64,000 nt of DNA, taken from an uncultured delta proteobacterium. Lineage in GTDB: Bacteria > Myxococcota_A > Polyangia > Polyangiales > Houyiibacteriaceae. Each line of letters starts with the position of its first letter. Position 1 is the stretch's first letter. This document shows, one piece after another, positions 4,072 to 41,255 of this stretch. The stretch spans positions 142,348 to 206,347 of the forward strand of contig CAVQHC010000017.1 of assembly GCA_963712235.1 (NCBI GenBank), given 5' to 3'. A program made the translations under genes and the position numbers. Below the pieces are notes generated by a model. That model was not told where the DNA came from. It saw only the letters and a program-made list of their open reading frames with translations, and ran no database searches.

Positions 4072-4148
4072 CTGCTGGGGCTGCCGCGGGTGTTGGGGGA
4101 GGCGGTGTTCGGCTTGGGCTCCCGCGGGTGTTTGGGGGGGGTGGTTGA
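4072..4148. repeat. left stub of the GC-rich repeat array, cut off by the IS3 insertion
   Basis: Contains two copies of the sub-repeat GCTGCCGCGGGTGTTGG. It aligns by eye with the reverse complement of 12000-12095 and continues at 5411 after the IS. Confidence 0.75.
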
Positions 4149-4202
4149 TGGAGTTGACCCGGTTTCGTGGACACTCGCCCGCTTTCGGGCAAAGGAGTCC
4201 AC

Positions 4203-4520
4203 ATGCCTCAAAGACACAGGCCAGCGTACCCCGCGGAGTTCCGGGAGCGACTGGTGGAGCTGGTCCGCTCGGGACGCAGCCCGGAGGAGCTCGCGAGGGA
4301 GTTTGAGCCCTCGGCCCAGGCGATACGCAACTGGGTGGCACAGGCCGAGCGCGACACGGGCAAGCGAAGCGACGGTCTGACGACCCAGGAGCGCGAAGAG
4401 CTTCGGCGTCTTCGACGCGAAAACAAGACGCTCAAGGTTGAAAAAGAAATCTTGAAAAAAGCCGCCGCCTGGTTCGCGCAGGAGACCGATTCGGTTCCGC
4501 CCAAGAATTCGAATTCGTGA
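4203..4520 (+). CDS. IS3-family transposase OrfA (HTH)
   Basis: Reads MPQRHRPAYPAEFRERLVELVRSGRSPEELAREFEPSAQAIRNWV, then a leucine-zipper-like REELRRLRRENKTLKVEKEILKKAAAWF. The A6G run at 4455-4461 is the likely -1 slippery site. Confidence 0.85.
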   Translation: MPQRHRPAYPAEFRERLVELVRSGRSPEELAREFEPSAQAIRNWVAQAERDTGKRSDGLTTQEREELRRLRRENKTLKVEKEILKKAAAWFAQETDSVPPKNSNS

Positions 4521-5383
4521 GAGCGCATCAGGCTAAATATCCCGTGCGGACGCTTTGTCGGGTGCTCGGTGTCTCCCCGAGCGGCTACTACGCGTACGTG
4601 AAGCGTCCGGCGTCACGGCGTGCGGTCGAAGACGCGGGGCTCCTCGAGCGCATCGAGCACTTCCATGCGCGCTCTCGGGGTACGTACGGAGCGCCGCGCA
4701 TCCACCGCGACCTCCGCGAGGAGGACGCGGTGCGCGTGGGCCAAAAGCGCGTCGCACGGCTCATGCGGCAAGCCCAAATCGTCGGTATCAGTCGCCGCAA
4801 GCGGCGCGTGACGACGACCCGACGCGACGTCAACGGCCGACCGGCGCCTGACCTTGTCGATCGCGATTTCACGGCGACCGGCCCCGACCAGCTCTGGGTC
4901 GCGGACATCACTTACGTCCCGACCCACGCTGGCTTTTTGTACCTCGCGGTGGTCGTCGATGCGTGGAGCCGGCGCGTGGTCGGCTGGTCGATGGCCCATC
5001 ACCTGCGCACCGAGCTCGTCCTCACGGCGCTCGAGATGGCGCTTCAACAACGGCGGCCGGCCGACGTGATTCATCACTCCGACCAAGGCTGCCAATACAC
5101 GTCGTACGCCTTCGGCAAACGCTGCCGACAAGCGGGCGTCCGACCCTCGATGGGCTCGGTCGGCGACGCCTACGACAACGCCATGTGCGAGAGCTTCTTC
5201 GCCACCCTCGAGTGCGAGCTGCTCGACCGACGGCGCTTCCGCTCTCAGACTGAAGCGCGAATGGCCATCTTCGACTTCGTCGAAGGCTGGTACAATCCCA
5301 AGCGACGCCACTCGGCGCTCGATTACCTCTCACCCCTTCAATTCGAACGAATCAACCGAACCCCAATGCGCGCAAGCGCTTAA
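4517..5383 (+). CDS. IS3-family transposase OrfB (DDE integrase core), expressed as OrfAB by -1 frameshift
   Basis: Contains YPVRTLCRVLGVSPSGYY, WVADITYVPT, HHSDQGCQYTS and NAMCESFFATLECEL (DDE/rve core). The frame is -1 relative to orfA and is open upstream back to the A-run. Confidence 0.9.
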   Translation: MRAHQAKYPVRTLCRVLGVSPSGYYAYVKRPASRRAVEDAGLLERIEHFHARSRGTYGAPRIHRDLREEDAVRVGQKRVARLMRQAQIVGISRRKRRVTTTRRDVNGRPAPDLVDRDFTATGPDQLWVADITYVPTHAGFLYLAVVVDAWSRRVVGWSMAHHLRTELVLTALEMALQQRRPADVIHHSDQGCQYTSYAFGKRCRQAGVRPSMGSVGDAYDNAMCESFFATLECELLDRRRFRSQTEARMAIFDFVEGWYNPKRRHSALDYLSPLQFERINRTPMRASA

Positions 5384-5410
5384 CCGTCCACCGAAGCGGG
5401 TGAACTCCAT

Positions 5411-6007
5411 TGATGGGCTTGGTGGGTGGTTTGGTTTAGTTACACCGCCCGCCCACCCCCACCCGTAATCCTCCCTGGCGCGGCATTCGCTTCGCTCTGC
5501 CTTGCCGGCGCGTTCGCGCCGGGCTTCGCCCTTCGGGCTCGCGCTGCCGCGGGTGTTTGGTAGGGCGGGGGCGGGCGTCGCCGTTCGGCTTGGGTGTCAC
5601 CGTTCGGCTTGTGCTGCCGCGGGTGTTGGGGGGGCGGGTCTTGGGTGGGCGGCGTGGTACGGCTTGTTGACACCGCCCCGCCCACCCCCACCCGTAATCC
5701 TCCCTGGCGCGGCATTCGCTTCGCTCTGCCTTGCCGGCGCTTCGCGCCGGGCTTCGCCCTTCGGGCTCGCGCTGCCGCCTGCCGATTGGGAAGGTTGGTG
5801 GTCCTGTCTCCGTAGGGAGGGGCGCGACAAAAACCCGTCATGGGGTGGAGTCGACGTAACGAGTGACAATCTGCAAGACAGCAGCCACCGCAGATTGGCG
5901 CGAGTTCCGAGGCTCGGCTTGCGTGGTCCAGGCCCCCATGTGCTTCCGACCACATCTGCAAGCCGAGCCGTTCGATGGAACCCCGTGTCGGGTTTTTTCC
6001 GCGCCCC
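5411..6007. repeat. GC-rich composite repeat array (two R units plus a 189-bp hairpin module)
   Basis: R units lie at 5441-5550 and 5669-5778 (CACCCCCACCCGTAATCCTCCCTGGCGCGGCATTCGC...GCCGGCGCGTTCGCGCCGGGCTTCGCCCTTCGGGCTCGCGCTGCCGC). The hairpin module at 5819-6007 has 27-nt terminal inverted repeats. An inverted homologue lies at 11624-12095. Confidence 0.85.
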
Positions 6008-6011
6008 GGTT

Positions 6012-6689
6012 CTAGTCGACCGCTTGCGCTCGCCACTTGCGCAGGATGAGTATGCTGATCGCGGCGATCACGACTGCCGCGAGGATGAGGAAAGGCCAGA
6101 GCTGGTCCCAGGGCCAGGTCGCCACAGGGTGCTCTTCGATCCATTTCGCGACACGAACTCCGACCAGCGTCGTCATCAAGGTGAAGGGCGCGACGCCCAA
6201 GACGGTCGCGGCGAGGAACGGGACGAAGGCGACTCGCGACACGCCCAACGCCCACTGCACGGTGGGGGTCGTGTAGAAGATCAGGCGCAGCAGGAAGACC
6301 GTTCGGAATCCGTTCGTTTGGAGTCGCTCATCGAATCGTCGAATGCGAGGAGGGAGCCGTTGTTGAATCCAATCGCGCGCTACGAATCGCGCGACGAGGA
6401 ACGAAAACAAGCCGGTGCCAATCGTGCCGGCCCAGTTGAGCAGAAACGCCTCGGTCGGAGTCCAGATGAGCGGCGCGCTGAGAAGGAAGACGAGCCCGTT
6501 CACACCAAACGGCTGCAGGCATGTGTACGCTGCGATGAAGAGCACGCCACCCCAGGGCCCGGCCTTCTGAAACCAAATCCGCATCGAGGCAGGGTCGAGC
6601 TCCTGGTAGGCGCCGCTCGCGTAGATCCAGGCAACTGCCCCGGCCAGCAGCGCGGCGAATGCGATCTTCAACAGGCTTGCGCGATCCAC
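6012..6689 (-). CDS. TVP38/TMEM64 (DedA/SNARE-associated superfamily) membrane protein
   Basis: Polytopic membrane protein. Contains the family-typical stretch FLLNWAGTIGTGLFSFLVARFVARDWIQQRLPPRIRRFDERLQTNGFRTVFLLRLIF. Confidence 0.7.
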   Translation of the reverse strand: MDRASLLKIAFAALLAGAVAWIYASGAYQELDPASMRIWFQKAGPWGGVLFIAAYTCLQPFGVNGLVFLLSAPLIWTPTEAFLLNWAGTIGTGLFSFLVARFVARDWIQQRLPPRIRRFDERLQTNGFRTVFLLRLIFYTTPTVQWALGVSRVAFVPFLAATVLGVAPFTLMTTLVGVRVAKWIEEHPVATWPWDQLWPFLILAAVVIAAISILILRKWRAQAVD

Positions 6690-6776
6690 CCGGGGAAGCC
6701 TAGCTCAGGACTTGCGGACAACCCTGGACATCCGGAATTCAGCCGGTTAGAAATGCGCGGTGGCTAGGAGGAAACG

Positions 6777-8157
6777 GTGCAGGACGCTGTAGCGCCCGGT
6801 TTGTCGGCCGCCGCGACCAGGCGACTTCCGGCCGTGCGCACCGAGGAGACGGCGCGCGAGTTTGGGGGCTCCTTTGGGGCTGCCTTCATCATGACGCTCT
6901 CGCATGCCCTGATGCTCTACCTCTGGATCGCGTGGCGCTTTCACGACGGAGCGGTGTTCTATCCGGTCTCGCTCTCCGATCTGGGACCGTTCTTCAGACG
7001 TGATTTGGGAGCAGATCGTGACCTACGCGTCACCGACTTGGAGCACGTTCGGCATCTACGGGGCGTTCCTGCTCGTGGAGGGATGGATGGCGGCTTACCT
7101 GCCGGGGTTGGAAATAAAGGGGCTGCCGATCCCGTCGCGGAACGGCCAACGGCTGGTCTACCGCTGCAACGGCATCACCGCGTGGTACCTCACGCTACTC
7201 GCTATCGCGATTTTGCACCTCAGCGGAGTCTTCCCTCTGGAGACGATCTACCAGCAGTTTGGCGCATTCATGATCACTGCGATGATCATCGCGAACGTCG
7301 TTGCGCTCCTCGTTTACTTCGGAGCCAGGGCAACCGGCAACGCGGAGCGGATGTCGGGGAACTTCCTTTACGACTTCTTCATGGGGGCTTGGCTCAATCC
7401 TCGGATCGGACCCTTGGACCTCAAAATGTGGGCGGAGGTCCGCGTCTCCTGGCTGACCCTCTTCTTGCTGACGGCCAGCGGCGCCGCACACCAATACGCG
7501 ACGTATGGCACGGTGAGCACGCCGATGATCTTCATGGTAGTCGCCCATTTTCTCTACACCAATGCCTGCATGAAGGGCGAGGAGTGCATCCCGACGACCT
7601 GGGACATCTTCTACGAGAAGTGGGGCTGGATGCTCGTCTTCTGGAACCTGGCGGGCGTGCCGTTCGTGTACTGTTTCAGCTCGATGTACATCGCATCGCG
7701 ACCGCCGTTCGAGCACTCTGCTGCGTTTACCGTGTTTTGTTTTCTGCTGCTGTTTGGCTCGTACTACGTCTGGGACACGGCGCAAAGCCAGCGAAACCGC
7801 TTTCGCATGCAGCTCAACGGCTCGTACGTGAAACGGAAGGCGTTCCCACAGTTGCCCTGGGGCACGCTGCACAACCCGCGCTACTTGGAAACCGAAGCCG
7901 GGTCCAAGCTACTCGTCGATGGCTGGTGGCGATACGCCCGAAAGATTCACTACACAGCGGACATTCTGATGGCGTTATCCTGGGGCCTGATTTGCGGCTT
8001 CGACCACTTCTTACCGTACCTCTACGTGACCTTCTTCGTGGTCATGATTCTGCACCGCGCCGGGCGGGACATCCGCAGGTGTAAGAAAAAGTACGGCGCA
8101 GACTGGGAGCGCTACTGTGAAGAAGTCCCCTACTTGTTCATTCCGTACGTGTTCTGA
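6777..8157 (+). CDS. ERG4/ERG24-family sterol reductase (C-14/delta-7 type), interrupted by an apparent +1 frameshift near 6996-7002
   Basis: The C-terminus LLVDGWWRYARKIHYTADILMALSWGLICGFDHFLPYLYVTFFVVMILHRAGRDIRRCKKKYGADWERYCEEVPYLFIPYVF is the family signature (ORF 7000..8157). The expected N-terminal segment REFGGSFGAAFIMTLSHALMLYLWIAWRFHDG is in the other frame (ORF 6777.., real only up to about 7001). Confidence 0.8.
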
Positions 8158-8836: not shown

Positions 8837-9493
8837 CTAAAATAGGTAGGCGATGTTGACCTGCAGCTGCTGGTAGCTCGTTCTGTAGGACGTCTTCGTC
8901 GCGCTGTTGAGGCTGATCGAATAGTTGAAGTCGAAATTGAACATCGCCACGTCGAAGTTCACCCCAACGCGTCCAATCGCTTGGTAGATCGCGAAGTCTA
9001 CCTCCTTGGGTTTGAGCTTGATCGTGGTTTCTGGAATTCCCAAGGCTTCGTTGGATCCAAGCGTAGCGATGATCTTCGTATTGAAGTGGTTTACGAATCC
9101 TGCGTAGAGAAACAGTTTGAAGAGGGGGTTCTTGTACGGGATGTACCCCATGATCAGTGGCAACTCGAAGGAGTTCACCTGCGCTTGGAGACTGAGGACG
9201 TTGCCGTCGTCGTCAGCATCCTGCAGGCCGACCGCCCAGCGATTGAACGAGAACAGAATTTCGATGAATGCTTTGCGGCGTCGGACTCGCGCACCGAATC
9301 CGACCTGCCATCCTCCGAAAATCTCTTGTTCGCGACCCGTTTCGAGCAGGGAAACGTAGTTCGTGACGCTACCTCCGAAGAAGACCTTGATGTCCAGCTT
9401 CGGCTGCTGGGCACTGCTAGCAGAGGGCCATGCGAGAACCAGAACCGGAGCCAAGAAGAACAGTGCTATGAGCCAGCGCTTCGTCATGGTCAT
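8837..9493 (-). CDS. outer-membrane beta-barrel protein
   Basis: Signal peptide MTMTKRWLIALFFLAPVLVLAWPSASSAQ starts at the ATG at 9493; the ORF-track start 9586 is upstream. Shows an alternating amphipathic strand pattern and a C-terminal ...NIAYLF. GC is noticeably lower, about 47-55% in lines I counted. Confidence 0.6.
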   Translation of the reverse strand: MTMTKRWLIALFFLAPVLVLAWPSASSAQQPKLDIKVFFGGSVTNYVSLLETGREQEIFGGWQVGFGARVRRRKAFIEILFSFNRWAVGLQDADDDGNVLSLQAQVNSFELPLIMGYIPYKNPLFKLFLYAGFVNHFNTKIIATLGSNEALGIPETTIKLKPKEVDFAIYQAIGRVGVNFDVAMFNFDFNYSISLNSATKTSYRTSYQQLQVNIAYLF

Positions 9494-11110
9494 GCCGGAA
9501 AGAAGTATTCCTTGCCGTCCAGGACGAAACGCTTGTCCATGATGCGCGGCCAGAGCGGCTTCTTTCGGAGCTCGCTCTTCTGCCACTGCTCGTGCTCCTC
9601 ATGAAGCTTCTCGTAGAGCTCAGGCATCTGCTCTTTGAGATTGATCTGCTCGGACTTGTCGGTTTCGAGGTTGTAGAGCTCGGCCCAGCCGTCACGGGTG
9701 CTCAAGATGAGCTTGTACTTGCCATCGCGAATCGCCCAGATGTGATCGGCGCGCCAGAAGAGTTGCTCATGCGGAACCCCATCGGCCGTCCCCTGGAGGT
9801 ACGGCACCAGATTGACGCCGTCGTAGGGACGGTCGCTTGGAAGAACGCCGCCTGCAGCAGCGACCGAGGTGGCGAAAATATCGGTCGAAGAAACTGGGTT
9901 CTGATAGCGCATCCCAGCGGGGAATTTGCCCCTTCCACTTCATCATGAACGGGACGTTGATCCCGCCTTCGAACTGGGTGAGCTTTCCTCCCTTGAGCGG
10001 ACCGTTGTCCGTCGCGTGCGTGTACGACGCGCCGCCGTTGTCGCTCAGAAGGAAAATGAGCGTGTCGTCCTCGATGCCGGTGTCGATGATGGTCTGATGC
10101 ACTTCGCCGATCGCGTCGTCGAGGGCCGAGATCATCGAGTAGTAGACGCGCTTGTTGTCGTCTTCGACGTAGGCGTACTGGCAGTAGTAGTCGACGGGCG
10201 CTTGGAAAGGCACGTGCGGTGCGCTGAACGCCGCGTAGAGGAAGAACGGCTCGTCCTTGTGCTCCCGGATGAATGCCTTCATCCGGTCTCTGAATGCAAA
10301 GGTCAGGTACTGCTCTTCGCGAACCTCTTTCCCGTTCTCGAGGATCATCGCTTCTTCGCGGCGGCCCATGTTCCACTGGTGCTGCGCGCTAAACGAATCG
10401 TGCTCGTGATTGATGATGCCGGCCCAGTTTCGCTCGGGCGTGTACAGGGAAAAGGCACCGTTGAAACCGTACTGGTAGTCGAAGCCGCGCGCGAGGGGCA
10501 CCTGTTTGCGCGACACCCCCAGGTGCCACTTCCCGACGATTCCCGTCGAATAGCCATACTTCTTGAGAATGTTGGCGAGCGTGATCTCCGTCGGTGGAAC
10601 ACCCTGCTTGTGCGCCTGCCACTCCGCTGGAAACGATGGCTTGGCTTTGACCTTGAACTCGCCTGTGTCGACGATCCAGCGACCAGAGATGTACTCGACC
10701 CAGTTGGTCGGGTAGTGCTCCATGATCTGGGTTTCGAAGCCGTAGCGGTTCTGAACCCGGCCCGTCATGATGCCCGCACGTGACGGCGCGCAGGTCGGGG
10801 CGGTCACGTAGCCTTCCTGGAAGACCACACCCTCGGCGCCAATCCGATCGATGTTGGGCGTCGCGATGTGCTCTGCGCCGTAGGCCGAGACTTCGTACTT
10901 GCCCAGGTCATCGGCGAGCAAGATGACGATATTCGGCTGGCGCTTCGTCTTGGCGATCGCGATAGGAGCATCCATGTACGCCGATTTGCCCGAGCGCATG
11001 GGTTTGTCCTTTTTGATCCGCCACTTCGCCCGAGTGATGGAACAACTCACCAACAACAGGGCGAGGCCCACGAGGAGCGTCGACTCGAGTAATCGCTTCT
11101 TCCTGAACAT
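9490..11110 (-). CDS. arylsulfatase-family lipoprotein, split by a 1-nt frameshift in a homopolymer (9919-9922)
   Basis: MFRKKRLLESTLLVGLALLLVSC signal starts at the ATG at 11110. Contains LLADDLG and the formylglycine motif CAPSRAGIMTGR. ...GGINVPFMMKWKGQIP (ORF 9767..) continues as AGMRYQNPVSSTDIFATSVAAAGG... (ORF 9490..9912) if one C of the coding-strand CCCC is removed. Confidence 0.85.
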
Positions 11111-11172
11111 CCCGGCTCGGGGCAAGTGGTACCGGCTAGGCCCTGTGCCTGGCAAAAAAGACGCACCCGCAG

Positions 11173-11285
11173 GCGGCAGCGCGGGCCCGAAGGGCGAAGC
11201 CCGTCGCGAACGCGCCGGCAAGGCGAAACGCAGCGAACGCCGCGCCAGGGAGGATTACGGGTGGGCGTGGGCGGGCGGTGTAACC
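11173..11285. repeat. partial R-unit copy (inverted orientation)
   Basis: GCGGCAGCGCGGGCCCGAAGGGCGAAGCCCGTCGCGAACGCGCCGGCAAGGCGAAACGCAGCGAACGCCGCGCCAGGGAGGATTACGGGTGGGCGTGGGCGGGCGGTGTAACC is the reverse complement of the units at 5441-5550 and 5669-5778. Confidence 0.85.
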
Positions 11286-11295
11286 AAAACCGACT

Positions 11296-11385
11296 CTGGC
11301 ACTGGCACTGGCACTGGCACTGGCACTGGCGCTGGCACTGGCACTGGCACTGGCGCTGGCGCTGGCGCTGGCGCTGGCGCTGGCC
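11296..11385. repeat. hexanucleotide microsatellite (CTGGCR)x15
   Basis: Fifteen perfect 6-bp units, CTGGCA or CTGGCG, read directly from the sequence. Confidence 0.95.
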
Positions 11386-11622
11386 GATCAGCTCAAGAGA
11401 GCTGCACAGAGCGTGGTGCTAAACATCGCGGAGGCTCGAGGGAACGATGCGGGGAATGCGAGAGCGCGGTTCTCAACCGCTTGCGGTTCTGCAAAAGAAG
11501 TACGGGCCGCCCTAAACGTCGCAAGTGACTGGGGCTACATCGAGAGCCACACGGCAACTCACCTCGACGGGAAGCTCGACGAGGTGTGCGCCATCACATG
11601 GTGCTTGGGCAGAAAGCGCTAA
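11380..11622 (+). pseudogene. N-terminally truncated four-helix-bundle protein (23S rRNA IVS protein / Avd-like family)
   Basis: LADQLKRAAQSVVLNIAEARGNDAGNARARFSTACGSAKEVRAALNVASDWGYIE...LDEVCAITWCL matches helices 2-4 of the family. Helix 1 is missing. In frame, the upstream sequence is the microsatellite (ALALAL...) with no start codon. Confidence 0.55.
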
Positions 11623-11623
11623 C

Positions 11624-12095
11624 GGGGCGCGGAAAAAAGCGCGACACGGGGCTGCGTCGAACGGCTCGGCTTGCAAATGTGGTCGGTTGCACTTGGGAGC
11701 TTGGACCACGCAAGCCTCGCCTCGGCGCGCGCGCCAATCTGGGGTGGTTGCTGTCTTGCAGATTGGCACTTGCGACGTCGACTCCGCCCCATATCGCGCT
11801 TTTTTCCGCGCCCCTCCATACGGAGACAGGACCAACAACCTTCCCAAAAAGCAGGCGGCAGCGCGAGCCGGAACGGCGAAGCCCGGCGCCTTGGCGCCGG
11901 CAAGGCAGAGCGCAGCGAATGCCGCGCCAGGGAGGATTACGGGTGGGGGTGGGCGGGCGGTGTAACTAAACCGAACCACGCCACCCACCCAACACCCCAC
12001 CTCCAAACACCCGCGGCAGCACAAGCCGTACGGCGCCGCCCACCCCCCCCAAACACCCGCGGCAGCACAGGCCGCCCAACCACCCGCACCGCAAG
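11624..12095. repeat. GC-rich composite repeat array, inverted copy (191-bp hairpin module, R unit, tail)
   Basis: The hairpin module at 11624-11814 has 28-nt terminal inverted repeats: GGGGCGCGGAAAAAAGCGCGACACGGGG paired with CCCCATATCGCGCTTTTTTCCGCGCCCC. The R unit is at 11855-11966. The tail carries two copies of CAAACACCCGCGGCAGCACA. Confidence 0.85.
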
Positions 12096-21355: not shown

Positions 21356-22693
21356 ATGAGAGAACAGCCTATTTACGATGTCGTCATCGCAGGCGCCGGC
21401 CCTGCTGGAGCCACCGCGGCGTATTTTCTCGCCAAGGGCGGAAAGCGCGTCGCCCTTCTCGAGAAGGCGTCCTTTCCTCGGGACAAGCGCTGCGGCGATG
21501 CCTGGTGCGAGCCTGCGCTCGAGATTCTCGAGGAGATGGGGGTCGTCCAGGAGCTCGACGCCGAGGGCGCGGTGCAATGGGTTCGCTCCGGTGGCCTGGT
21601 GTCGCCGTCGGGCCTGAGCTTCACCAGCCCCGATGAAGGCGAGCGCGAGGGCGCGCCGCGGGTGGCCGCCATCCGACGGATGGTCTGTGACGAACGCATT
21701 GCGCGGGCCGCCGCACGTGTCGGCGCCGAGCTGTTCGAGGGCGCATCGGTGCACGATGCCAAGCTCGTCGACGGGCGCTGGACGGTGCGATGCAAGGATG
21801 GGCGAAGGTTTTCCGCTCGATGCCTGATCGCCGCCGACGGAGCGAAGAGTAAGATCGCGCGTGCGCTCGGCGTCGTGACGACGGGCGCCAACAGCGTTGC
21901 GAGCCGGCAGTACATCAAGGGGGGCACACATTGCTTCAGCAGTGACGGCGTCCTGCTTTATCCGCACTATGTGCTTCCGGGGTATGTCGCGCTTTTTCGC
22001 CATTCGAACGGAGATATCGATCTCGGCTGTTACCTCCTTCCCGGAGGCCGAGTTCCGCTGACGAAGCTGAAGTCTCTGCTCCAAACCGAGGTCGCCTCAG
22101 ACCCGTACGTACGCGCAGCGCTAGGCGAACACGCCGAGCCGCTGGAACCTCCGGGCCTGTCTCCTCTTCGCCTTGGAGGCGAGCCCCGGACGCATGGGGA
22201 ACGACTCCTCGTCGTGGGCGATGCGGCAGGACAAACCGATCCACTCACGGGCGAGGGCATTCACACTGCGATGGTCGCCGCGAAAATCGCAGCCCGACTG
22301 CTCGACGAGGCCTTCGCTGCGGGGGACCTCAGTGCGCGGCGGCTATCGGCGTACCATCGCGCCTGGATGAGGCAGTTCGGTCGCGACTTCTCCATATCGG
22401 CCGCTGCCGGCCGGGCAATCCATCGCTTTCCGGTACTGCTGGACACCGCCGCGATTGCGGCCCAGCGCAACGGGGCGAGCTTCATGGACAACTTCGGCGC
22501 GGCCATGACCGGCGTGAAGCCGAAATCGCTTTTCCTGTCTCCGAGCATGTCGATTCCCCTCGTTGCGGCGCTGCTCGGACTCCTGAGCTCGCGAGCACAC
22601 ACCAAGTATGCGTTGGGACCGCGCGGCGAGCCGACGCACGCTTTCAGCTTCGCCATGAACGCCCTCCAAATGAGCACCGGCGGCGCGCTATGA
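21356..22693 (+). CDS. FAD-dependent oxidoreductase, geranylgeranyl-reductase family
   Basis: YDVVIAGAGPAGATAAYFLAKGGKRVALLEKASFPRDKRCGD dinucleotide-binding N-terminus, and a GDAAGQTDPLTGEGI motif. Confidence 0.8.
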   Translation: MREQPIYDVVIAGAGPAGATAAYFLAKGGKRVALLEKASFPRDKRCGDAWCEPALEILEEMGVVQELDAEGAVQWVRSGGLVSPSGLSFTSPDEGEREGAPRVAAIRRMVCDERIARAAARVGAELFEGASVHDAKLVDGRWTVRCKDGRRFSARCLIAADGAKSKIARALGVVTTGANSVASRQYIKGGTHCFSSDGVLLYPHYVLPGYVALFRHSNGDIDLGCYLLPGGRVPLTKLKSLLQTEVASDPYVRAALGEHAEPLEPPGLSPLRLGGEPRTHGERLLVVGDAAGQTDPLTGEGIHTAMVAAKIAARLLDEAFAAGDLSARRLSAYHRAWMRQFGRDFSISAAAGRAIHRFPVLLDTAAIAAQRNGASFMDNFGAAMTGVKPKSLFLSPSMSIPLVAALLGLLSSRAHTKYALGPRGEPTHAFSFAMNALQMSTGGAL

Positions 22694-23822
22694 AGCTCTT
22701 CTTGCTGCGCCTGCTGTTAGGGCTCGCCATTTTGATGGCGACTTTGGCGATTGTCCTCCATCTTCGGTACGGCGGGGGGGAACCGTATCCAGACCTCAGC
22801 GGAGCACCGCTCTTCGATGAACGTGCGCTCGAAGTCGCGGTGACCAGCGCCGAGCCGATCGGCAACGTCGCAGTGTCCGCAGATGGGCGCGTGTTCTACA
22901 CGATTCACCCGGAGAGCCGCCCGAGCGGGGCCAAGTTGCTCGAATGGGTCGACGGCACGCCAAAGCCCTTTCCAAGCGAAGAAGCGCAGGCGCAATTCGA
23001 GACGCCACTCGGGGTCGCCATCGACCAACAAGGTCGGCTTTGGACGATCGACCACGGCAACCACGGCACCGGGCAGGCTAAGCTTTTGGCGTTTGACCTA
23101 GGGACGGGGGGCTCGTCCACGAGCACATGTTCGATTCCTCGGTTGCGCAGCTGGGTTCGTTTCTGCAGGACCTGCAGGTCGATTCTACCGGCACGCATGT
23201 CTTCATCGCCGATGTGAGCTTCTGGCGAAAAAACCCTGGCTTGATCGTCTACGACGTCGAGCGGGGCAAGGCGCGCCGCGTTCTGGACAGCGACCCTTCG
23301 GTGTCCGCGCAGGATTGGCTCATTCGTAACCCGACCAAGGACATGAAGTTTTTCGGCGGTCTAGTGGTGCTCAAGCCTGGTGTAGATGGAATCGCCATCA
23401 GCCGTGACGACAAATGGATCTACTACGGCGCGATGGCGCATGACACGATGTACCGCGTCAAGGTCGCCGACCTACTCGTCGACACGCTGAGCGATGGAGC
23501 ACTGGCAGCGAGGGTTCAAGCGCTTGGTGCGAAGCCACTCAATGATGGGCTGAGCACGGACGACCAAGGGAACCTGCTGATCACGGACGTCGAGCACGGC
23601 GCGGTCATCCGAATGACGCCCGCCGGTGAGCTCACGACGCTGGCTCGAAGCGAGAAGATTCGCTGGGCGGATGCCTTGAGCTACGGCCCCGATGGGTGGC
23701 TCTATGTCGCCGACAGCGCGATTCCCGATCAGATGCTGCGGTCGAAGACGCATATCCAAGCCCACTCTCCGTACTACATCTTCCGCTTCAAGCCAGGCAT
23801 CGACGGAGTGCCTGGGCAATAG
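22690..23822 (+). CDS. membrane-anchored MRJP/yellow-like beta-propeller protein, split by a frameshift in a G6 run (23106-23111)
   Basis: ORF 22690..23217 (...PLGVAIDQQGRLWTIDHGNHGTGQAKLLAFDLGTG) continues as LVHEHMFDSSVAQLGSFLQDLQVD...VDGIAISRDDKWIYYGAMAHDTMYRV in ORF 23127..23822 if one G is added. Confidence 0.6.
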
Positions 23823-23835
23823 CGCGGGGCACACG

Positions 23836-24342
23836 ATGACGCGACGCAGGACACGACCGGATACCTCTGGGAAGCCCGGCTACATCACGCCGGACGGCTA
23901 TAGGCGCTTTGAAGAAGAGGCGGATCGCCTTTGGAACGTCGATCGCCCGAAGATGGCAAAGGCCGTGCAGGTTGCGGCGGCCGAAGGCGACCGATCCGAA
24001 AACGCGGAGTATCAGTACAGCAAGCAGCGCCTCGCTGCGATCGATCGGCGACTTCGTTTCTTGGGGCGTCGGCTCAAGGTGCTGACCATCGTCGACGAGA
24101 TGCCGCCGGATGACGGCCGAGTGTACTTCGGAAGCTGGGTCACGATCGAAGACGAGGACGGCAATACGCAGACTTATCGCATCGTGGGACCCGACGAAAT
24201 CGACGCCGAGAAAAAATGGATCAGTATGGAGTCACCGGTCGGGAAGGCCTTGCTCTCGCGCGAGCAGGGCGACGAAATCACGCTCCGCCGCCCCAAGGGC
24301 GAGGTGCGCTGCGAGATCATCGAAGTGCGCAACACGCCCTAG
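23836..24342 (+). CDS. greB: transcription elongation factor GreB
   Basis: ITPDGYRRFEEEADRLWNVDRP...GDRSENAEYQYSKQRLAAIDRRLRFL...VYFGSWVTIEDEDG...IVGPDEID closely parallels E. coli GreB. The ATG at 23836 is in frame within ORF 23692... Confidence 0.9.
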   Translation: MTRRRTRPDTSGKPGYITPDGYRRFEEEADRLWNVDRPKMAKAVQVAAAEGDRSENAEYQYSKQRLAAIDRRLRFLGRRLKVLTIVDEMPPDDGRVYFGSWVTIEDEDGNTQTYRIVGPDEIDAEKKWISMESPVGKALLSREQGDEITLRRPKGEVRCEIIEVRNTP

Positions 24343-24536
24343 TTTTCGGTTCCCAAAACACCGATGCCGACACGCCAGACCTGCGTCCCGAAGAGGTTGG
24401 TCACGTAGAGCGAGCAGGGATCGTACTCGCCCTGGCCGAACGCAAGGCTTGCGGGCTTGGAGACGCCCTCGACAATGATGGTGACGGTTCCATCCGGGGA
24501 CGTCCTTCCAGAGTCGCGACTCGGGTCGCCGAGCGC
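24339..24536 (-). pseudogene. orphan 3' fragment of a beta-propeller (SMP-30/gluconolactonase/NHL-like) gene
   Basis: The stop-to-stop frame on the minus strand reads ALGDPSRDSGRTSPDGTVTIIVEGVSKPASLAFGQGEYDPCSLYVTNLFGTQVWRVGIGVLGTEN*. This looks like a typical last blade. It has no start codon and nothing upstream. Confidence 0.45.
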
Positions 24537-24795
24537 TTATAACGCAAACCGGCCTGATGACGCAGCGCGCAAAATGTGCACTTCTTTCGCAAGAGAAATT
24601 CAAAGCGCATGATTTGCACTTCCGCTGGTGCCCCAGCGCATCGATCATTCGCGCCACCCAAGCAAGTCGAGAGAGATCATGGGACGTCGGGCGGGTGCAT
24701 CGTTTTGGCACAGAAGCTGCTTATCCGCAGCGTGCCCCTGCGTACCTGCAACTTGCCGCGCATATTCTGCGGGGGGGAAAACGGAAGACCTCTCG

Positions 24796-26463
24796 ATGAC
24801 TCACAGCAGTAGCCTCGACGCGGAATCGCTACGACTCGTTCTCGATTCGCTCGATGATTTCGCCAAAGCAAACCTCAGCGACGAGAAACTCCTCGAGCTC
24901 GATGAGAAGGACATCTTTCCAGAGGAGCTCGTCCGCGCGATCGGCAGCGAAGAGCTCGGAGTGCAGCTGGTGTTCATCCCCGAAGAGCACGGTGGGATGG
25001 GCGGCGGGGCCTTCGACGTGTATCGGGTCTGCGAAGCGATGGCCCGGATCGATGTCGGCCTAGCCACCGGCGTCCTGGCGACCTTTCTCGGCAGCGACCC
25101 CATCGTGTTCGGCGGGACGCCCGAGCAAAAAGAACACTGGCTGAGCCGTATCGCGGAAGAAGGTTTGCTCATGGCTTACGGGGCCACCGAACCAGCTGCC
25201 GGCAGCGACCTTGCCGCGCTCAAGACGGTGGCGGTCCCCGTCGAAAAGGATGGCAGCGTCGTTGGATACGAGATCACCGGGAACAAGCAGTGGATCTCGA
25301 ACGGCGGGTACGCCGATGTGTACACCGTGCTTGCGAAGGCACCGGGTGGTCCCAGCTGGTTTGTCGTCGAACGCGGCGCCGAGGGCTTTTCTGCGGGGAA
25401 ACCCGAGGACAAGCACGGTATCCGGCTGAGCAATACGACCGCCTTGGTTCTCGAAAACGTCTACGTCGACGCCGGTCAGCTCGTGGGGCTCGAGGAAGGC
25501 CAAGGGCTGCAGCAGGCTCAGCTGGTCTTCGGGTTCACGCGACTGATGGTGGCGGCCTTCGGGCTTGGCGCGGGCTGGGCGGCTCTCGACCGGACGATCG
25601 AATACTCGACCGAACGCATTCAAGGTGGGGCGCCGCTCTCGGAAAAGCAGGGCTACACGCACAAGCTCATCGTGCCGCATGCGGTGCGCCTGGAGGCCGC
25701 GCGAGCCTACATCGAGCAAACGGCAGAGGCCATCGACAAGGGCGGCGACGACTTGCTGAACACCGAGGGCGCGATCGCCAAATACCTCGCGAGCGAGGCG
25801 GGCAACGCCGCGGCAGACGCAGCCATTCAAGGGCACGGCGGCTACGGGTACACCAAAGAGTACATGGTCGAGAAGATCAAGCGCGACGTTCGAATCACCA
25901 CGATCTACGAGGGCACCTCCGAAATCATGGAAATGACGATCGGACGCGACCGCTGGCAGCATCACCTCAAGACCCGCGGGCAGCACTATCACGACCTCGG
26001 GCGGCGGCTCGAAGGCGTACACAGCGAGCACCCCAAGGTCGGTGCCGACATCGCGGCGCTGGCCGCACACGCCCTCGCAGAAGTCATGGAACGCGCACGC
26101 GAGAAACGTCTCACGCGCAACCAGCACGTATTGTTTCGAATCGGTGAGCTCGCCTCCTATGTCGAAGGTGCGGCGGCGTTTGCTCGACGCGCAGTCCGTG
26201 CCGAGCTCGATGAGCTCAATCCAAAGTCCCCAAGGCGATTTTCGCCGCCGGCTGTTGCGGCAATGGCGCGGGTTTTCGCGCGTGAAGCCGCGCAGCGCGT
26301 TGCCGTAGACGGCATGCGTTGGGTCATCGGCGCCGAAGCGCCGGGGAGCGCAGACGTCCCGTCGCTCGAAACGAGCGCGGGCCTGTCGAACGTTTATGCA
26401 GCCCAAGCGGGGTTGATCGAAGACATGAATCAGGTGGGGGACGCGCTTTACGAGCGCTCCTGA
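24796..26463 (+). CDS. acyl-CoA dehydrogenase family protein (555 aa, with C-terminal extension)
   Basis: Contains [37 protein letters not shown] and [14 protein letters not shown]. The ATG at 24796 ([12 protein letters not shown]...) is in frame within ORF 24628... Confidence 0.9.
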
Positions 26464-26482
26464 CCAAGCAGGGAGCCCGCAG

Positions 26483-29400
26483 ATGCAAGATCAGGTACAT
26501 CGAGCCATAGCTGTCGTCGGGGTCGGCGCAGTACTTCCGGATGCACAGAACGCCAAGGAGCTCTGGAACAACGTTTCAACCGGGCGCTACAGCATCAGCG
26601 AAACACCCGTCGACCGTTGGGACCCGGCGCTTTATTACGATGCAGACCCAAAGGCCCCCGACAAGACCTATTCGAAGATCGGGGGCTGGGTTCGCGAGTT
26701 CAACTGGGAGCCCCTGAAGTGGAAGCTGCCGATTCCGCCGAAGGTGGCGGAGTCGATGGACCGCACGCAGAAGTGGTCGATCATGTCGGCGCGAGAGGCG
26801 CTTCTCGATTACGGCTATCCAGAGCGCCCGCTCGATGGCGATCGAACCGCGGTGATCCTCGGGAACGCCATGGCAGGCGACCAGCATTACAAGACGGCGC
26901 TTCGCATCTTTTTTCCCGAGTTCTCGCGTGAGCTCGACGGAGCGCCGAGCTTTCAAGCGCTCCCAGGGGACGTCAAAGCCGCAATCGTCGAAGAAACGAT
27001 GGGACGCATGCGGGAGCACTTTCCGACCATCACCGAGGACACGATGCCCGGCGAGCTCGCGAACATCATCGCCGGCCGTGTGGCGGCGGTCTTCAACTTT
27101 CACGGTCCCAACTTCACGGCAGATGCGGCCTGTGCGTCGGCCATGGCCGCCTTCAGCGCTGCCATCTCGGGGCTCGAAGAAGGGGACTACGACGCCGTGC
27201 TCACCGGCGGCATCGACAGCAACATGAGCGCGCCGAGCTACACGAAGTTCTGCAAGATTGGCGCGCTCTCGGCCACCGGGACGCGGCCTTACGACGAAGG
27301 CGCCGACGGTTTCGTGATGGGCGAAGGCGCGGCGGTCTTTCTTCTAAAGCGTTTGGAAGACGCCGAGGAAGCGGGCGACAAGATCTACGCCGTGGTTCGG
27401 GGAATCGGCGGGTCGAGCGACGGCAAAGGCAAGGGGATCACCGCGCCCAACCCGATCGGACAGAAGCTCGCGATCGAGCGCGCATGGGCTCATGCCGGCG
27501 AGGATTTGGCGACGGTGAGCCTGATTGAGGGCCACGGCACGTCGACGCGGGTTGGCGATGTGGTCGAGGTGCAAAGTATGGTCGACGCGTTCGCCGATGC
27601 GGGGCTGCCCAATTCGAGCGTTCCAATCGGCTCGGTCAAGTCGAACATCGGTCACCTCAAGGGAGCCGCTGGCGCCGCCGGCCTGCTCAAAGCCACCCTC
27701 GCACTGCACCACAAGCAGCTGCCCCCGAGCATCGGATTCCAGACACCCAACCCGAAGATCGGGTTCGGTCACATCCCGTTTTACGTCAACACCGAGCTCA
27801 GGCCTTGGGATGACTTCAAAGAAGTTCGGCGAGCGGGCGTCAGCGCATTCGGTTTCGGAGGGACGAATTTCCATGCCGTCCTCGAAGAGCACGTGCCTGG
27901 GAGGATTCAACGAAAGAAGCGGACCTCGGTATCGGTGCCCTCCGGCTCCTCGACGCCAACGGCGACCGGCGCCGTTGCGATGGCTGACAAGGCCCCGATG
28001 CGCGGTTCTTTGGTCCTGGGCGCCGGCTCGACTAAGGAGTTGGCGATCAAGCTCGATGCGGTGCTCGAAGACGCGAAGGCCGGGCGCGCGCCCAATCGCC
28101 AGCCGCCAGCCGCTTCGGATCTCCATGCCGCGGGAAGGCTGGCGATCGACTTCGGTGACGCAGCCGAGCTCGCCAAGAAGGCGACGAATGCCGCCAAGGG
28201 GCTTCGCGCCGACAACGCGGCGATGTGGAAGGCGCTGCGAGCGCAGGGCATCTTTTACCGAACGGGGGCCGCACCAAAAACAGCGTTCCTTTTCACGGGC
28301 CAGGGTTCGCAATACGTGAACATGCTGCGAGAGCTTCGCGAGGTGGAGCCGATCGTGGCTGACACTTTCCGAGAAGCCGACGACGTGATGAAGCCACTGC
28401 TCGGTCAGCCGCTGAGCGAAATCATCTTCGTCGATCCGAACGACAAAGCAGCGGTCGCCGAAGCGGACGAGGCGCTTCGGCAGACCGCGATCACCCAGCC
28501 GGCGGTGCTCGCAACCGACCTTGCGCTGACGCGGCTTCTGGCCGCTTATGGCACGACCCCTGACATGGTCATGGGACATAGCCTCGGAGAGTACGGTGCC
28601 TTGGTGGCGAGTGGGGCGCTCGGCTTTCGCGAGGCGCTCGAGGCGGTCAGCGCGCGCGGACGGGAGATGACCAAGGTCTCGGTCGACGACAACGGCTTGA
28701 TGGCCGCCGTCCTCGCGCCGATTGATGAGGTGCAGGCGATTGTGAGCTCGGTCGATGGATACGTGGTCATCGCCAACATCAACAGCTTCGGCCAGTCTGT
28801 GATTGGTGGTTCGACCCCGGGTGTGACGGCGGCGATTGAGGCGATCGCGAAGGCCGGCCACCAGGCTATCCCGCTCCCGGTCAGTCACGCGTTTCACACC
28901 GAGGTCGTTGCCCCAGCAAGCGGCCCGCTCAAAAAAGAGATCGCACGGCTCGGCATCGAATCGCCGAAGATTCCAATCGTCGCCAACGTCAGCGGTGAGT
29001 TCTACCCGATGGGGCCGAACGTCGCCGAAGAGATGATCGAGCTCCTCGGTCGGCAAATCGCCTCGCCGGTGCAATTCGTGAAGGGGCTCGAGACTTTGTA
29101 CGACGCGGGGGCACGGGTCTTCGTCGAAGTCGGTCCGAAGTCCGCTCTGGCGCGATTTGCCGAAGATGTGCTTGGCAGCAAGGCCGACTCCCTGTCCCTG
29201 TTCACCAACCACCCGAAGATCGGGGACGTCGCGGCCTTCAACGCAGCGCTCACCGGGCTCTATGCGAGCGGGCACGGCGCGCCCAAGAGCGAGCGCAGAT
29301 TGCAAGAGCTGAGCAGCAACGGAGCAGCGACCCGCGTGGCTGCTGCAGCGGCTCCGGCCGTGCCCCCGACGCTTACCGTTTCGGCGCGTCGGGCGCCCCA

Positions 29401-32400
29401 ACGGGCATCATCCGCCGTGGGAGGCGATCGCTATGCCCAACTCGGCCGCTTGTTTGCCGATTTCCTCGACCAAGGGATGGAGATCTATCGCGGCGGGACC
29501 GCCGTCGATTCCGGAGAGCCGGTGGTCGTCACCGGAGCGACCATCGGACTGCCCGGCGGGGAGAAGGTCTTTGCGGACGAAAACGTCGACCGGATGCTGC
29601 ACGGTCAGAGCTTCATCGACGCGATCCCGGTGGGGCTTCGTCGTGCGATGGCGGACAAGAAGATCACCCGCCTCGTGAAATCGGAAAAAGGCGGGGCGCG
29701 CTTCGAAACGATCGACTCGCCCGCCGACGTGATCAAGCTCGCCGGCCGGGCTGGCGACATCGCCTTGTCGAGCGATTTCGGCATTCCCGAGGAGCGCGCG
29801 GCCGCGATGGACTCGACGACACGAATGGCCGTTGCCGCAGGAGTGGAGGCGCTACGCGACGCGGGGATTCCGCTCGTGATGCACTACAAGACGACGACCA
29901 AGGGAACGAAGCTTCCCGACCGCTGGGGCTTACCCGCGGAGATGCAAGACGAGACCGGCGTCATCTTCGGTTCGGCGTTCCCCGGCTCCGACATGTTCAT
30001 GGGCGAGGCTCGGCGATACTACGAGAGCGAGACGCAGGAGAGACTGCTCGATGAGCTGCGCAGCTTAAGGGCGCGCATGGCAAGCAACGGCGGCGACCCG
30101 CTAGGCGCAGAAATCGACCGTCGAATCGCGGAAATCGAAAGCGACCGTCAGCGCGATCCGTACACGTTCGACCGGCGCTTCCTGTTCAAAGCGCTGTCGA
30201 TGGGCCACTCTCAGCTCGCGGAGTACATCGGCGCGCGCGGGCCGAACACCCAAATCAACTCGGCGTGTGCCAGTGGAACGCAGGCTGTGGCGCTAGCCGA
30301 GGATTGGATCATGCGCGGTCGGTGCAGGCGCGTCGTGGTCGTCACCGCGGACAACGTGACGAGCAACAATTTGATGGAATGGATCGGTGCGGGTTTCCTG
30401 GCCAGCGGCGCCGCGGCGACGGACGAGGTACTCGAGGACGCCGCCCTTCCCTTCGATCGTCGACGTCACGGCCTCATCCTTGGAATGGGCGCTTCGGGCA
30501 TGGTCATCGAAAGCGCGGACGCGGCCCGCGAACGCGGTCTGAGGCCAATCGCACAGGTGCTCGGTACGGTGACCGCCAACAGCGCCTATCACGGCAGCCG
30601 TTTGAACATCGAGCACATTCAGGGTTTGATGGAAAAGCTGGTCGCAGACTGTGAGGCGCGGCACGGCATCGATCGCGCGGCGATCGCGCCGAACACGGTA
30701 TTCGTTTCACACGAGACGTACACACCGGCACGCGGCGGTAGCGCTCAGGCGGAGATCAGCGCGCTTCGCAAGGTCTTTGGCGCCAACGCGGACAGCATCG
30801 TAATCGCAAACACGAAGGGCATGACGGGTCATGCGATGGGTGCGGGGGTGGAAGACGCGACCGCCATGAAGATTCTCGAGACGGGTTTGGTCCCGCCGGT
30901 GGCAAACTTCAAAGAGGTGGACCCGGAGCTAGGTGCGCTAAACCTCTCGAGAGGCGGGAGCTACCCCGTTCAGTATTCACTTCGACTGGGCGCTGGGTTC
31001 GGCTCCCAGATTAGCCTGTCGCTCTGCCGTTGGGTCCCGAGCCCAGACGGGCGTCGACCGGCGCCAAGGGAGCTGGGCTACACGACTCGGGTCGAGGATC
31101 GAGCGCTCTTCGAACGCTGGGTTGCGTCCGCCACCGGCTACGCCTCGCCGGAGTTGGAAGTGGTGAATCGGACCCTGCGGGTGAAGGATCAGGGTCCCTC
31201 GGCCGCAGTCGCGGTGTCAGCGTCAACGGCAGTGTCAGCGTCAGTGCCAGCGTCAGTGCCAGCGTCAGCGCCAGTGCCGGCGTCAGCGCCAGTGCCGGCG
31301 CCGGCGCCGGCCATCGACCCCGTGACGGCGAAGGTCTTGTCGATCGTCTCCGAGCAGACGGGATATCCCTCCGACATGCTCGACCTCGAGCTCGACCTCG
31401 AGGCCGACCTCGGGATCGACACCGTCAAGCAGGCGGAGACCTTTGCTGCAGTGCGCGAGGCGTACGATATCGAGCGCGAGGACAATCTCGAGCTTCGGGC
31501 GTTCCCGACGCTCGGGCACGTGGTTCAGTTCGTCCGCGACCGCCGACCAGACTTGATGGCCGCGCCATTGCCAGCGCCAGCGTCAGCGCCAGCGTCAGTG
31601 TCAGTGCCAGTGCCAGTGCCAGTGCCGGCAATCGACCCCGTGACGGCGAAGGTCTTGTCGATCGTGTCCGAGCAGACTGGGTATCCCTCCGACATGCTCG
31701 ACCTCGAGCTCGATCTCGAAGCAGACCTCGGGATCGACACCGTCAAACAAGCAGAGACCTTTGCTGCAGTGCGCGAGGCGTACGATATCGAGCGCGAGGA
31801 CAATCTCGAGCTTCGGGCGTTCCCGACCCTCGGGCACGTGGTTCAGTTCGTCCGCGACCGCCGACCAGACTTGGCGGCAGCGCCAGTGTCAGCGCCAGCG
31901 CGAGTGTCAGCGTCAGTGCCAGCGCCAGCGCAGCGACCCGGTGACCGCGAAGGTACTCGCGATCGTGTCCGAGCAGACTGGGTATCCCTCCGACATGCTC
32001 GACCTCGAGCTCGACCTCGAAGCGGACCTCGGGATCGACACCGTCAAGCAGGCCGAGACCTTTGCCGCCGTGCGCGAGGCGTACGATATCGAGCGCGAGG
32101 ACAATCTCGAGCTTCGCGACGTTCCCGACCCTCGGGCACGTGGTGCAGTTCGTCCGCGACCGCCGCCCGGATCTGGTGCCAGCGCCAGCGCCAGCGTCAG
32201 TGCCAGCGTCAGTGCCAGCGCCGGCGTCAGAAGATTTGATCACCCAGAAGGTGCTCGAAGTCGTCGCGTCGGTCACCGGCTACCCGCCCGTAATGCTCGA
32301 GCTCGACCTGGACCTCGAGGCGGACCTCGGAATCGACACGGTCAAGCAAGCCGAGACTTTTGCCGCCGTGCGCGAAGCGTATGGAATTCCTCGCGACGAC

Positions 32401-35022: not shown

Positions 35023-35028
35023 ACGAAG

Positions 35029-40590: not shown

Positions 40591-41255
40591 CGATACGCTG
40601 GAGGCTCCTTGCTGCATCCGAGCTGCCACAAGGGGACGGCTGGCTCATAGCAGAAGAGCGGAAGGTCCTAGCGGGACTCCGGTTTCAAAAGAGGCGCGCT
40701 GACTGGCGACTCGGACGGTTGGTAGCGAAGCGTACCGTGTCTTCAGTCGTCGGGGTCGATGACCTAAATCGGATTCACATCCTCGCGGCAAAAGACGGCG
40801 CCCCCGAAGCGTGGATCGACGGACAAAGGCTCGACTCGGAAATCTCGATCAGCCATCGCAACGGGCTGGCCGCGTGCGCGATTGCGCCGGGCGCTGGCGT
40901 CGGCTGCGACCTGGAGGCCGTCGAGCCGCGGAGCTCACGCTTCGTGAATGACTTCTTCACCGAGCGCGAACGCAGGGTGGTTGGGACGACGGCCGAGGCT
41001 CATCGAGATCGTGTCGTTGCCTTGACCTGGAGCGCCAAGGAAAGCGCACTGAAGGTTTTGCGGGTGGGTCTGCGGCGGGACACGCGTAGCGTCGAAGTGG
41101 TACTCGACCATGTCGAAGCGGCTGAAGCCGGCTGGCATCCATTGCGCGCCGCTGTCAGGCCAGAGGGCCAAAACTTTCGAGGTTGGTGGCGCCAAGAAGC
41201 CGGGATCGTGTTGACGATCATGAGCGACGAGGAAACCCAATCCATCGCCAACTAG
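40587..41255 (+). CDS. Sfp-type 4'-phosphopantetheinyl transferase
   Basis: Contains ISISHRNGLAACA, GVGCDLE and WSAKESALKVL motifs. The start overlaps the carboxylase stop (ATGA at 40587-40590). Confidence 0.85.
   Translation: MTIRWRLLAASELPQGDGWLIAEERKVLAGLRFQKRRADWRLGRLVAKRTVSSVVGVDDLNRIHILAAKDGAPEAWIDGQRLDSEISISHRNGLAACAIAPGAGVGCDLEAVEPRSSRFVNDFFTERERRVVGTTAEAHRDRVVALTWSAKESALKVLRVGLRRDTRSVEVVLDHVEAAEAGWHPLRAAVRPEGQNFRGWWRQEAGIVLTIMSDEETQSIAN

Follow-up and report, generated by a model that had tools for sequence, protein, structure and literature searches.

An ERG4-Type Sterol Reductase Gene in an Uncultured Member of the Polyangiales and a Frameshift of Probable Assembly Origin

In this work, we describe a sterol reductase gene found in a stretch of 64,000 nucleotides from an uncultured member of the Polyangiales (hereafter the window). 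Positions 6777–8157 very probably represent the Polyangiales orthologue of Coxiella burnetii CBU1206/Stmp1, with an extra T that is a consensus error. In the given sequence the full-length frame is interrupted, being split by one extra base at 7001.

Members of the ERG4/ERG24 family have been known from bacteria, in the genomes of Coxiella and Legionella, for more than 15 years. The present gene is therefore of a kind already known, and proteins 96% identical to its product are public with the same annotation. In the studies referenced within PMC8787468, eukaryote-like sterol reductases are described for Coxiella (CBU1158 and CBU1206) and for Legionella drancourtii, and homologues have also been noted in Chlamydiae and in sponge-associated MAGs (PMC10070321).

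Results

Gene Structure and Family Assignment

The gene lies on the forward strand and runs from a GTG start at 6777 to a TGA stop at 8155–8157, the exact limits given in a preliminary description of the locus. Other features are listed in table 1. The AGGAGGAA block upstream of the gene and the GTGCAGGA start are kept in the DNA alignment with three intact relatives (L001, L002 and L004). Read in frame 0 up to about position 7000, the sequence translates as ...EFGGSFGAAFIMTLSHALMLYLWIAWRF...GPFFRR and matches residues 1–75 of intact homologues of 459 aa. Frame +1, which translates from 7000 as VIWEQIVTYASPTW..., stays open to the TGA stop, giving an ORF (7000–8157) of 385 aa, and the part from 7002 onwards corresponds to TM2–TM10 and the catalytic half. 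When T7001 is left out, the CDS has 1377 nt and 459 codons with zero stops, and its alignment with those of 13 relatives is collinear and free of gaps; several segments of transmembrane strength appear in the hydropathy profile of the corrected protein.

Table 1. Features of the Sterol Reductase Locus and Single-Base Indels Elsewhere in the Window
Feature	Position	Strand	Remarks
IS3-family insertion between hydrolase and VTT genes	4146..5592	+	HTH_Tnp_1 and rve domains
TVP38/TMEM64 (VTT/DedA-superfamily) membrane protein, divergent	6012..6689	-	PF09335 on orthologues
Shine-Dalgarno AGGAGG	6766..6771	+	5 nt before GTG start; window sequence
Sterol reductase CDS, N-terminal part	6777..7000	+	Codons 1–74 and two bases of codon 75; frame 0
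First transmembrane helix TM1, FGAAFIMTLSHALMLYLWIAWRF	6873..6941	+	aa 33–55; hydropathy peak; upstream of frame break
Extra T, CGG to CGTG, +1 shift	7001..7001	+	Outside homopolymer; DNA alignment
Sterol reductase CDS, remainder	7002..8157	+	Codon 75 third base to codon 459 and TGA; frame +1
Signature motif 1, GNFLYDFFMGAWLNPR	7357..7404	+	aa 194–209; regex match, corrected protein
Signature motif 2, ILHRAGRDIRRCKKKYGADWERY	8047..8115	+	aa 424–446; regex match; region aligns to MaSR1 C-terminus
Private 1-base insertion, sulfatase gene 9490–11221	9923..9923	-	Lengthens G run
Private 1-base deletion, MRJP/NHL-like gene 22690–23822	23109..23109	+	L073 copy intact
Extra base, PfaA-like PKS third ACP repeat	32119..32119	+	Alignment of internal repeats

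The ERG4_ERG24 profile of Pfam (PF01222) matches ORF 7000–8157 along profile positions 64–432 of 432 with E = 2.2e-122, and the score of 409 bits exceeds the gathering threshold of 27, which confirms the family membership that had been proposed from the sequence. The upstream frame gives a weak match to profile positions 2–44. Both family signatures, the PROSITE patterns G-x2-[LIVMF]-[YH]-D-x-[FYWI]-x-G-x2-L-N-P-R and [LIVM]2-[HRQ]-R-x2-R-D-x3-C-x2-K-Y-G, are intact in the corrected protein. The first starts at aa 194 and the second at aa 424. An NCBIfam search returned no model for the sterol reductase protein.

Using the fused (frame-corrected) protein as query, we found 1090 homologues, the best of them intact proteins of 459 aa. 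The closest were an intact metagenome protein (P0001, 96% identity), P0002 (91%) and P0004 (88%), and all the named top matches carry the name delta24(24(1))-sterol reductase in JGI and NCBI. A Coxiella burnetii protein with this name (P0077, 459 aa), which we equate with CBU1206 from its name, is 68% identical over the full length and scores 721 bits, against 218 bits for the highest-scoring delta14 reductase of the PDB. The latter is MaSR1 of Methylomicrobium alcaliphilum (PDB 4QUV), whose residues 66–427 align to ORF 7000–8157 with E = 2e-63. Based on the identity to the Coxiella protein, the delta24 names, the weaker delta14 score and the intact motifs, we assigned the gene to the ERG4-type clade and, judging from its sequence, it is a member of the bacterial delta24(24(1))-sterol reductase (CBU1206) clade.

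A Single Extra Base at Position 7001

DNA alignment with the same three intact relatives placed the break at T7001, inside the interval (6996–7002) where a switch from frame 0 to frame +1 had been described. At this point the relatives read ...GACG-GAT/C... and the window ...GACGTGAT..., that is, the codons TTC-GGA-CGG-ACC/ATT-TGG in the relatives correspond to TTC-AGA-CGT-G-ATT-TGG in the window. The alignment thus gives CGG to CGTG, in accordance with the earlier remark that the switch is not in a homopolymer, and the frame breaks after codon 74, past the first transmembrane helix (aa 33–55), also as first described.

The extra T was absent from L001, L002 and L004, from the 13 collinear CDSs, from four metagenome contigs that cover this position (retrieved with a pattern that permitted either allele) and from the sister contig L074, which has 95–98% nucleotide identity to the window. 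The gene is in one frame in 64 of 72 loci, none of which has T7001, and no break at this site was found among about 70 relatives.

Purifying selection on the gene is strong, with dN/dS values of 0.06–0.15 against the 13 relatives. The changes unique to the window lineage are eight nonsynonymous, all conservative, and seven synonymous, compared with three and six in the L001 lineage; this is compatible with a slight relaxation, with counts too small to carry meaning.

Other Single-Base Indels in the Window and in Sister Assemblies

At least four further private frame-breaking single-base indels were found in conserved genes of the window, namely one in a sulfatase gene, one in an MRJP-like gene and two in a PfaA-like PKS gene. 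At about 9923, the sulfatase gene reads GGGGAATTT in the window and GGGAATTT (or GGGGATTT) in 15 relatives, and its sulfatase domain is divided between two frames. The MRJP/NHL-like gene encodes an intact protein of 377 aa in L073 and is spread over two frames in the window. In the PfaA-like PKS gene (26483–35022), a frame change at about 31930 accompanies the extra base listed in table 1; its homologues are single polypeptides of 2851–3076 aa that map onto three window frames. A G run at 24771, at the 5' end of an ACAD gene, has seven G against six G, a difference without polarity.

The sister assembly shows the same condition at other sites. On L073/L074 (ENA ERZ25039499, contig_15573, a Flye-style name) at least ten private insertions of a single base fall within CDSs along about 30 kb, including extra bases at the window-equivalent positions 9790, 14043, 15598, 16885, 18444, 18623 and 31666, and the genes that they break are intact in the window. 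The L074 copy of the ERG4 gene has three extra Gs, at window-equivalent 7054, 7197 and 7205, which sum to +3 and leave an ORF of "460 aa" in which about 50 codons are garbled. An MFD MAG (L068) has three private frameshifts in its ERG4 gene and one in its sulfatase gene. MFD long-read MAGs were assembled from Nanopore reads only, with Flye --meta followed by one round of Medaka (PMC12313526). In total, single-base indels that are not shared occur at roughly one per 3–15 kb between strains 95–98% identical.

Genomic Context and Distribution

Upstream of the sterol reductase gene lies the divergent TVP38/VTT gene, which adjoins it in about 30 loci. The order TetR, alpha/beta hydrolase, TVP38/VTT and, divergently, ERG4 is kept in about 30 MAG loci of the Polyangiales/Myxococcales. 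Such conservation of gene order in the Polyangiales clade indicates that the ERG4 gene is chromosomal and vertically stable. The idea of a bacterial accessory cassette, put forward in the preliminary description, could not be upheld in the face of this synteny, and the IS3 element alone is lineage-private. This element (orfA 4158–4517, orfB 4442–5383) is missing from the sister contig L074 and is private to the window lineage. The segment that comprises the VTT, ERG4, lipoprotein, OMP and sulfatase genes is enclosed by two blocks of inverted repeats, roughly 0.6 kb in size (5411–6011 and 11169–12077), which are present in relatives too and gave zero Rfam matches.

Scanning one genome per species, we found 64 loci with an ERG4-type gene. 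The members from the Polyangiales/Myxococcales MAG clade are 79–95% identical to the window protein. At 55–77% identity are those from Vicinamibacterales, Chloroflexota, Alphaproteobacteria, Arenicellales, Nitrospinota and Gemmatimonadota, many of them sponge-associated, as well as those from the intracellular Legionellales, Coxiellaceae and Rickettsiales. The ERG4-type clade, a tight one at 55–96% identity, is present in at least eight bacterial phyla.

A survey of the 64-kb window with Pfam and NCBIfam revealed no oxidosqualene or squalene cyclase, squalene epoxidase, CYP51 or sterol methyltransferase, and the Pfam survey of the remaining ORFs bears out the earlier statement that the window holds no cyclase or other core sterol genes. 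Likewise, no oxidosqualene cyclase, squalene epoxidase or C-14/C-4 demethylation genes were found within 10 kb on either side of the locus in relatives.

The myxobacterial C-24 sterol reductase Bsr belongs to the GGR superfamily (PMC12004948), and the window has a GGR-family flavoprotein gene 13 kb away from the ERG4 gene (21356–22693, 445 aa). This protein is 100% identical to one encoded on a 249-kb contig present in NCBI and ENA. As a candidate Bsr it leans negative: the length differs, the YxWxFP motif is absent, and none of its best 120 matches is a Bsr of a cultured myxobacterium. On these sequence features, we leave this gene out of the sterol genes.

Discussion

Consensus Error or Genuine Frameshift

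We consider it very likely that T7001 entered the sequence as a consensus error, in a metagenome assembly made from long reads, probably from Nanopore reads alone. The extra base is private to the window, and both the window and its Flye-style sisters are full of private indels, which makes a consensus error much the likelier reading. In fact, an indel rate such as the one found here, together with dN/dS near 0.1, resembles consensus errors and not pseudogenization. If T7001 arose in this way, the organism probably has an intact and functional gene.

Some observations count against an artifact. T7001 lies outside a homopolymer, the classical site of Nanopore errors, but the same nonhomopolymer kind of private indel is seen in the sister assemblies. 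The IS3 element, too, counts against this reading, as its arrival 1.2 kb upstream of the gene indicates that the region is not untouched.

A real frameshift would mean that a very recent 1-nt insertion inactivated the gene and turned it into a young pseudogene. A ribosome starting at 6777 would then make TM1 and continue out of frame for about 360 residues, because frame 0 is open to 8084, and the catalytic part would be missing. The T is, after all, present in the given sequence and outside a homopolymer, the lineage-private IS3 insertion is 1.2 kb away, broken copies also exist in three relatives (L043, L056 and L072), and the unique changes of the window lineage are slightly rich in nonsynonymous ones. 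Nevertheless, no further decay accompanies the break: there are zero stops, both motifs are intact and dN/dS is about 0.1. Moreover, the same explanation would demand at least four more independent young pseudogenes in the window, each made by a single-base indel, and at least ten different ones in the sister contig, including three indels in ERG4 that happen to total +3. We therefore regard a genuine inactivation as unlikely. Neither a biological role for the frameshift nor the status of a dead relic for the gene finds support in a break that is private to the window sequence and has private indels in conserved genes all around it.

Another alternative is that the break is functional, by programmed +1 frameshifting, by transcriptional slippage or by production of a separate TM1-less enzyme of 385 aa from the GTG at 7000. 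This GTG stands exactly at 7000, and the ORF that it opens keeps all that aligns to MaSR1 residues 66–427. On the other hand, the sequence before 7000, which reads TTCTTCAGACGTG, has neither a slippery or stall motif nor a Shine-Dalgarno. Frame 0 lacks a nearby stop, being open to 8084, which makes translational coupling impossible, and as none of about 70 relatives is broken at the site, a recoding signal is not conserved. With slippery site, Shine-Dalgarno and conservation all absent, we rejected both a programmed frameshift and an internal restart, the functional break being extremely improbable.

Proposed Function of the Enzyme

Starting from a consensus error at T7001, the intact product would be an integral membrane enzyme of 459 aa with roughly 10 transmembrane segments. 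By homology, it would bind NADPH in a pocket of its C-terminal half (TM6–10), as in the MaSR1 structure, and reduce a side-chain double bond of a sterol, at C24(28) or C24(25), by hydride transfer and protonation. The substrate may be an endogenous sterol or one acquired from prey or from the environment; several families of Polyangiales are sterol producers. Our main guide here is CBU1206, homology to which suggests that the window protein would use NADPH to reduce the side chain of a sterol. CBU1206 complements a yeast erg4 deletion (PMC5418226) and, as Stmp1, was described as homologous to delta24 reductases (PMC8787468).

It could also be that the protein, although a family member, acts here on something other than a sterol, such as another polycyclic or isoprenoid lipid. 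Neither a cyclase nor any other sterol gene lies near it in the window, many of the phyla in which the clade is found are not known as sterol makers, and even for Coxiella Stmp1 it is not known what the enzyme acts on in vivo (PMC8787468). Against this stand the 68% identity to a protein that reduces yeast ergosterol precursors and the strict conservation of the family signature motifs. In addition, sterol synthesis is documented in three families of Myxococcota, Polyangiaceae among them (PMC12004948). A nonsterol substrate thus seems to us improbable.

Comparison with Known Sterol Reductases

The closest parallel is Coxiella CBU1206/Stmp1, which shares with the window protein its length, the Pfam family and the name given by NCBI and JGI. 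Both are bacterial "orphan" sterol reductases with no cyclase nearby. They differ in their hosts, Coxiella being an intracellular pathogen and the window host a free-living, uncultured soil member of the Polyangiales. The window copy is further set apart by its conserved TVP38/VTT neighbor and by its 1-nt insertion, itself probably an artifact.

The likeness to Erg4 of Saccharomyces cerevisiae (C-24(28) reductase, EC 1.3.1.71) is one of family, naming and complementation: the two proteins belong to the same family, the KEGG-style JGI name of the closest homologues denotes the Erg4 reaction, and the Coxiella orthologue complements erg4-delta (PMC5418226). Unlike Erg4, the bacterial clade has diversified separately, in at least eight phyla. 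MaSR1 resembles the window protein in the aligned TM2–TM10, including the C-terminal NADPH-pocket region, but belongs to the C-14 reductase subfamily (ERG24/TM7SF2-type) and is far less similar to it than the delta24 clade is, with 218 bits against 721. In related myxobacteria, Bsr reduces the sterol side chain in an analogous manner (PMC12004948), although it is a FAD flavoprotein of unrelated fold, outside the ERG4/ERG24 family.

Implications

As a discovery, the gene is a minor one, near-identical proteins from soil Myxococcota MAGs being already annotated. The locus is instructive as a caution: it resembled a dying relic, yet its frameshift looks in every respect like a consensus error from long reads, which is why pseudogene calls from long-read assemblies need support at the level of reads.

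For the organisms themselves, the data point to a vertically stable, selected reductase, paired with TVP38/VTT, in an uncultured clade of Polyangiales, and they add a candidate side-chain reductase to sterol metabolism in Myxococcota. We may further speculate that ERG4, from a widely transferred clade, and TVP38/VTT form a dedicated module in bacteria with no sterol synthesis of their own, with uptake or flipping of exogenous sterols (from prey, fungi or hosts) followed by saturation of their side chains. We think that such a module is rather doubtful. If it did exist, the editing of sterol side chains would be widespread in bacteria, which would affect the interpretation of sterane biomarkers.

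Repeats and neighbouring genes

We found the sterol reductase gene ERG4 in a segment that also carries the genes for the membrane protein VTT, a lipoprotein, an OMP and a sulfatase, and that is enclosed by two inverted repeat blocks. Copies of these blocks are also present in relatives, and neither window block has a match in Rfam. In the case of the IS3-family element, the frames of orfA and orfB overlap, as usual, and the element is missing from the sister contig L074, which is 95-98% identical.

A second ERG4/ERG24-family paralogue, with ~31% identity, was observed 7-8 kb from the ERG4-type gene in MAGs of Alphaproteobacteria and Arenicellales, one of them from a sponge, Spongia. This recalls the CBU1158/CBU1206 pair of Coxiella. 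Three relatives carry genes for a Rieske oxygenase whose C-terminal domain is of the KshA type, along with a SnoaL-like protein and an FNR/ferredoxin-type reductase, all from steroid-oxygenase-like families, ~7 kb past the VTT side; the corresponding place is just outside the left end of the window.

The myxobacterial C-24 sterol reductase Bsr and the geranylgeranyl-reductase-family flavoprotein, whose gene adjoins that of an acyl-CoA ligase, are members of one superfamily. The flavoprotein, however, has 445 aa and is devoid of the YxWxFP motif. The lipid or polyketide cluster encodes an acyl-CoA dehydrogenase as well as a PfaA-like PKS, the latter spread over three frames with breaks at ~31930 and 32119.

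Features of the window and of related loci (L numbers)
Feature	Locus	Position	Strand	Remarks
IS3-family insertion sequence	window	4146-5592		between hydrolase and VTT genes
IS3 orfA	window	4158-4517		HTH_Tnp_1 domain
IS3 orfB	window	4442-5383		rve domain
Inverted repeat blocks	window	5411-6011, 11169-12077		each ~0.6 kb; 82-98% complementary
Perfect direct duplication	window	5448-5550, 5677-5778		103 nt
(CTGGCA)n hexamer array	window	11272-11397
Sulfatase	window	9490-11221	-	split by one extra base, ~9923
Flavoprotein	window	21356-22693	+	TIGR02032 above cutoff
MRJP/NHL-like gene	window	22690-23822	+	broken; one base missing at 23109
Lipid or polyketide cluster	window	24628-41255
PfaA-like PKS	window	26483-35022		KS-AT-tandem ACPs-KR-DH
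Biotin carboxylase + BCCP + carboxyltransferase fusion	window	35029-40590		1853 aa; after PKS; unusual
PPTase	window	40587-41255		after fusion gene
ERG4 copy	L074	8531-9913		private indels: three extra Gs, sum +3
ERG4 copy	L068	10001-11380		private indels: three frameshifts
Second ERG4/ERG24-family paralogue	L031	2901-3881
Second ERG4/ERG24-family paralogue	L032	2745-3761
Second ERG4/ERG24-family paralogue	L034	17226-18218
Second ERG4/ERG24-family paralogue	L061	2892-3881
Rieske/SnoaL-like/FNR-type group	L002	90-2316
Rieske/SnoaL-like/FNR-type group	L004	293-2840
Rieske/SnoaL-like/FNR-type group	L074	17167-19732

Indels in the window and in related long-read contigs

At the sulfatase break GGGAA has become GGGGAA in the window, and within ~130 nt of it L068 (an MFD MAG) and L074 each carry a private indel of their own that differs from it. 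The MRJP/NHL-like gene is unbroken in the sister contig L073 (377 aa). Further downstream, ~770 bp of L073 are absent from the window (at 24342-24506 / 24497), comprising most of a 308-aa SGL/gluconolactonase-like gene, of which just the C-terminal 55 codons are left. At 24771, in the 5'-terminal part of the gene for acyl-CoA dehydrogenase, a run of 7 G in the window stands against 6 G in L073, and either length may be the correct one.

ERG4 itself was called in L074 as an "intact" 460-aa ORF because its extra bases restore the frame, with ~50 codons garbled. Together with the L068 copy, this case warns that gene calls in these assemblies can be wrong and nonetheless appear intact.
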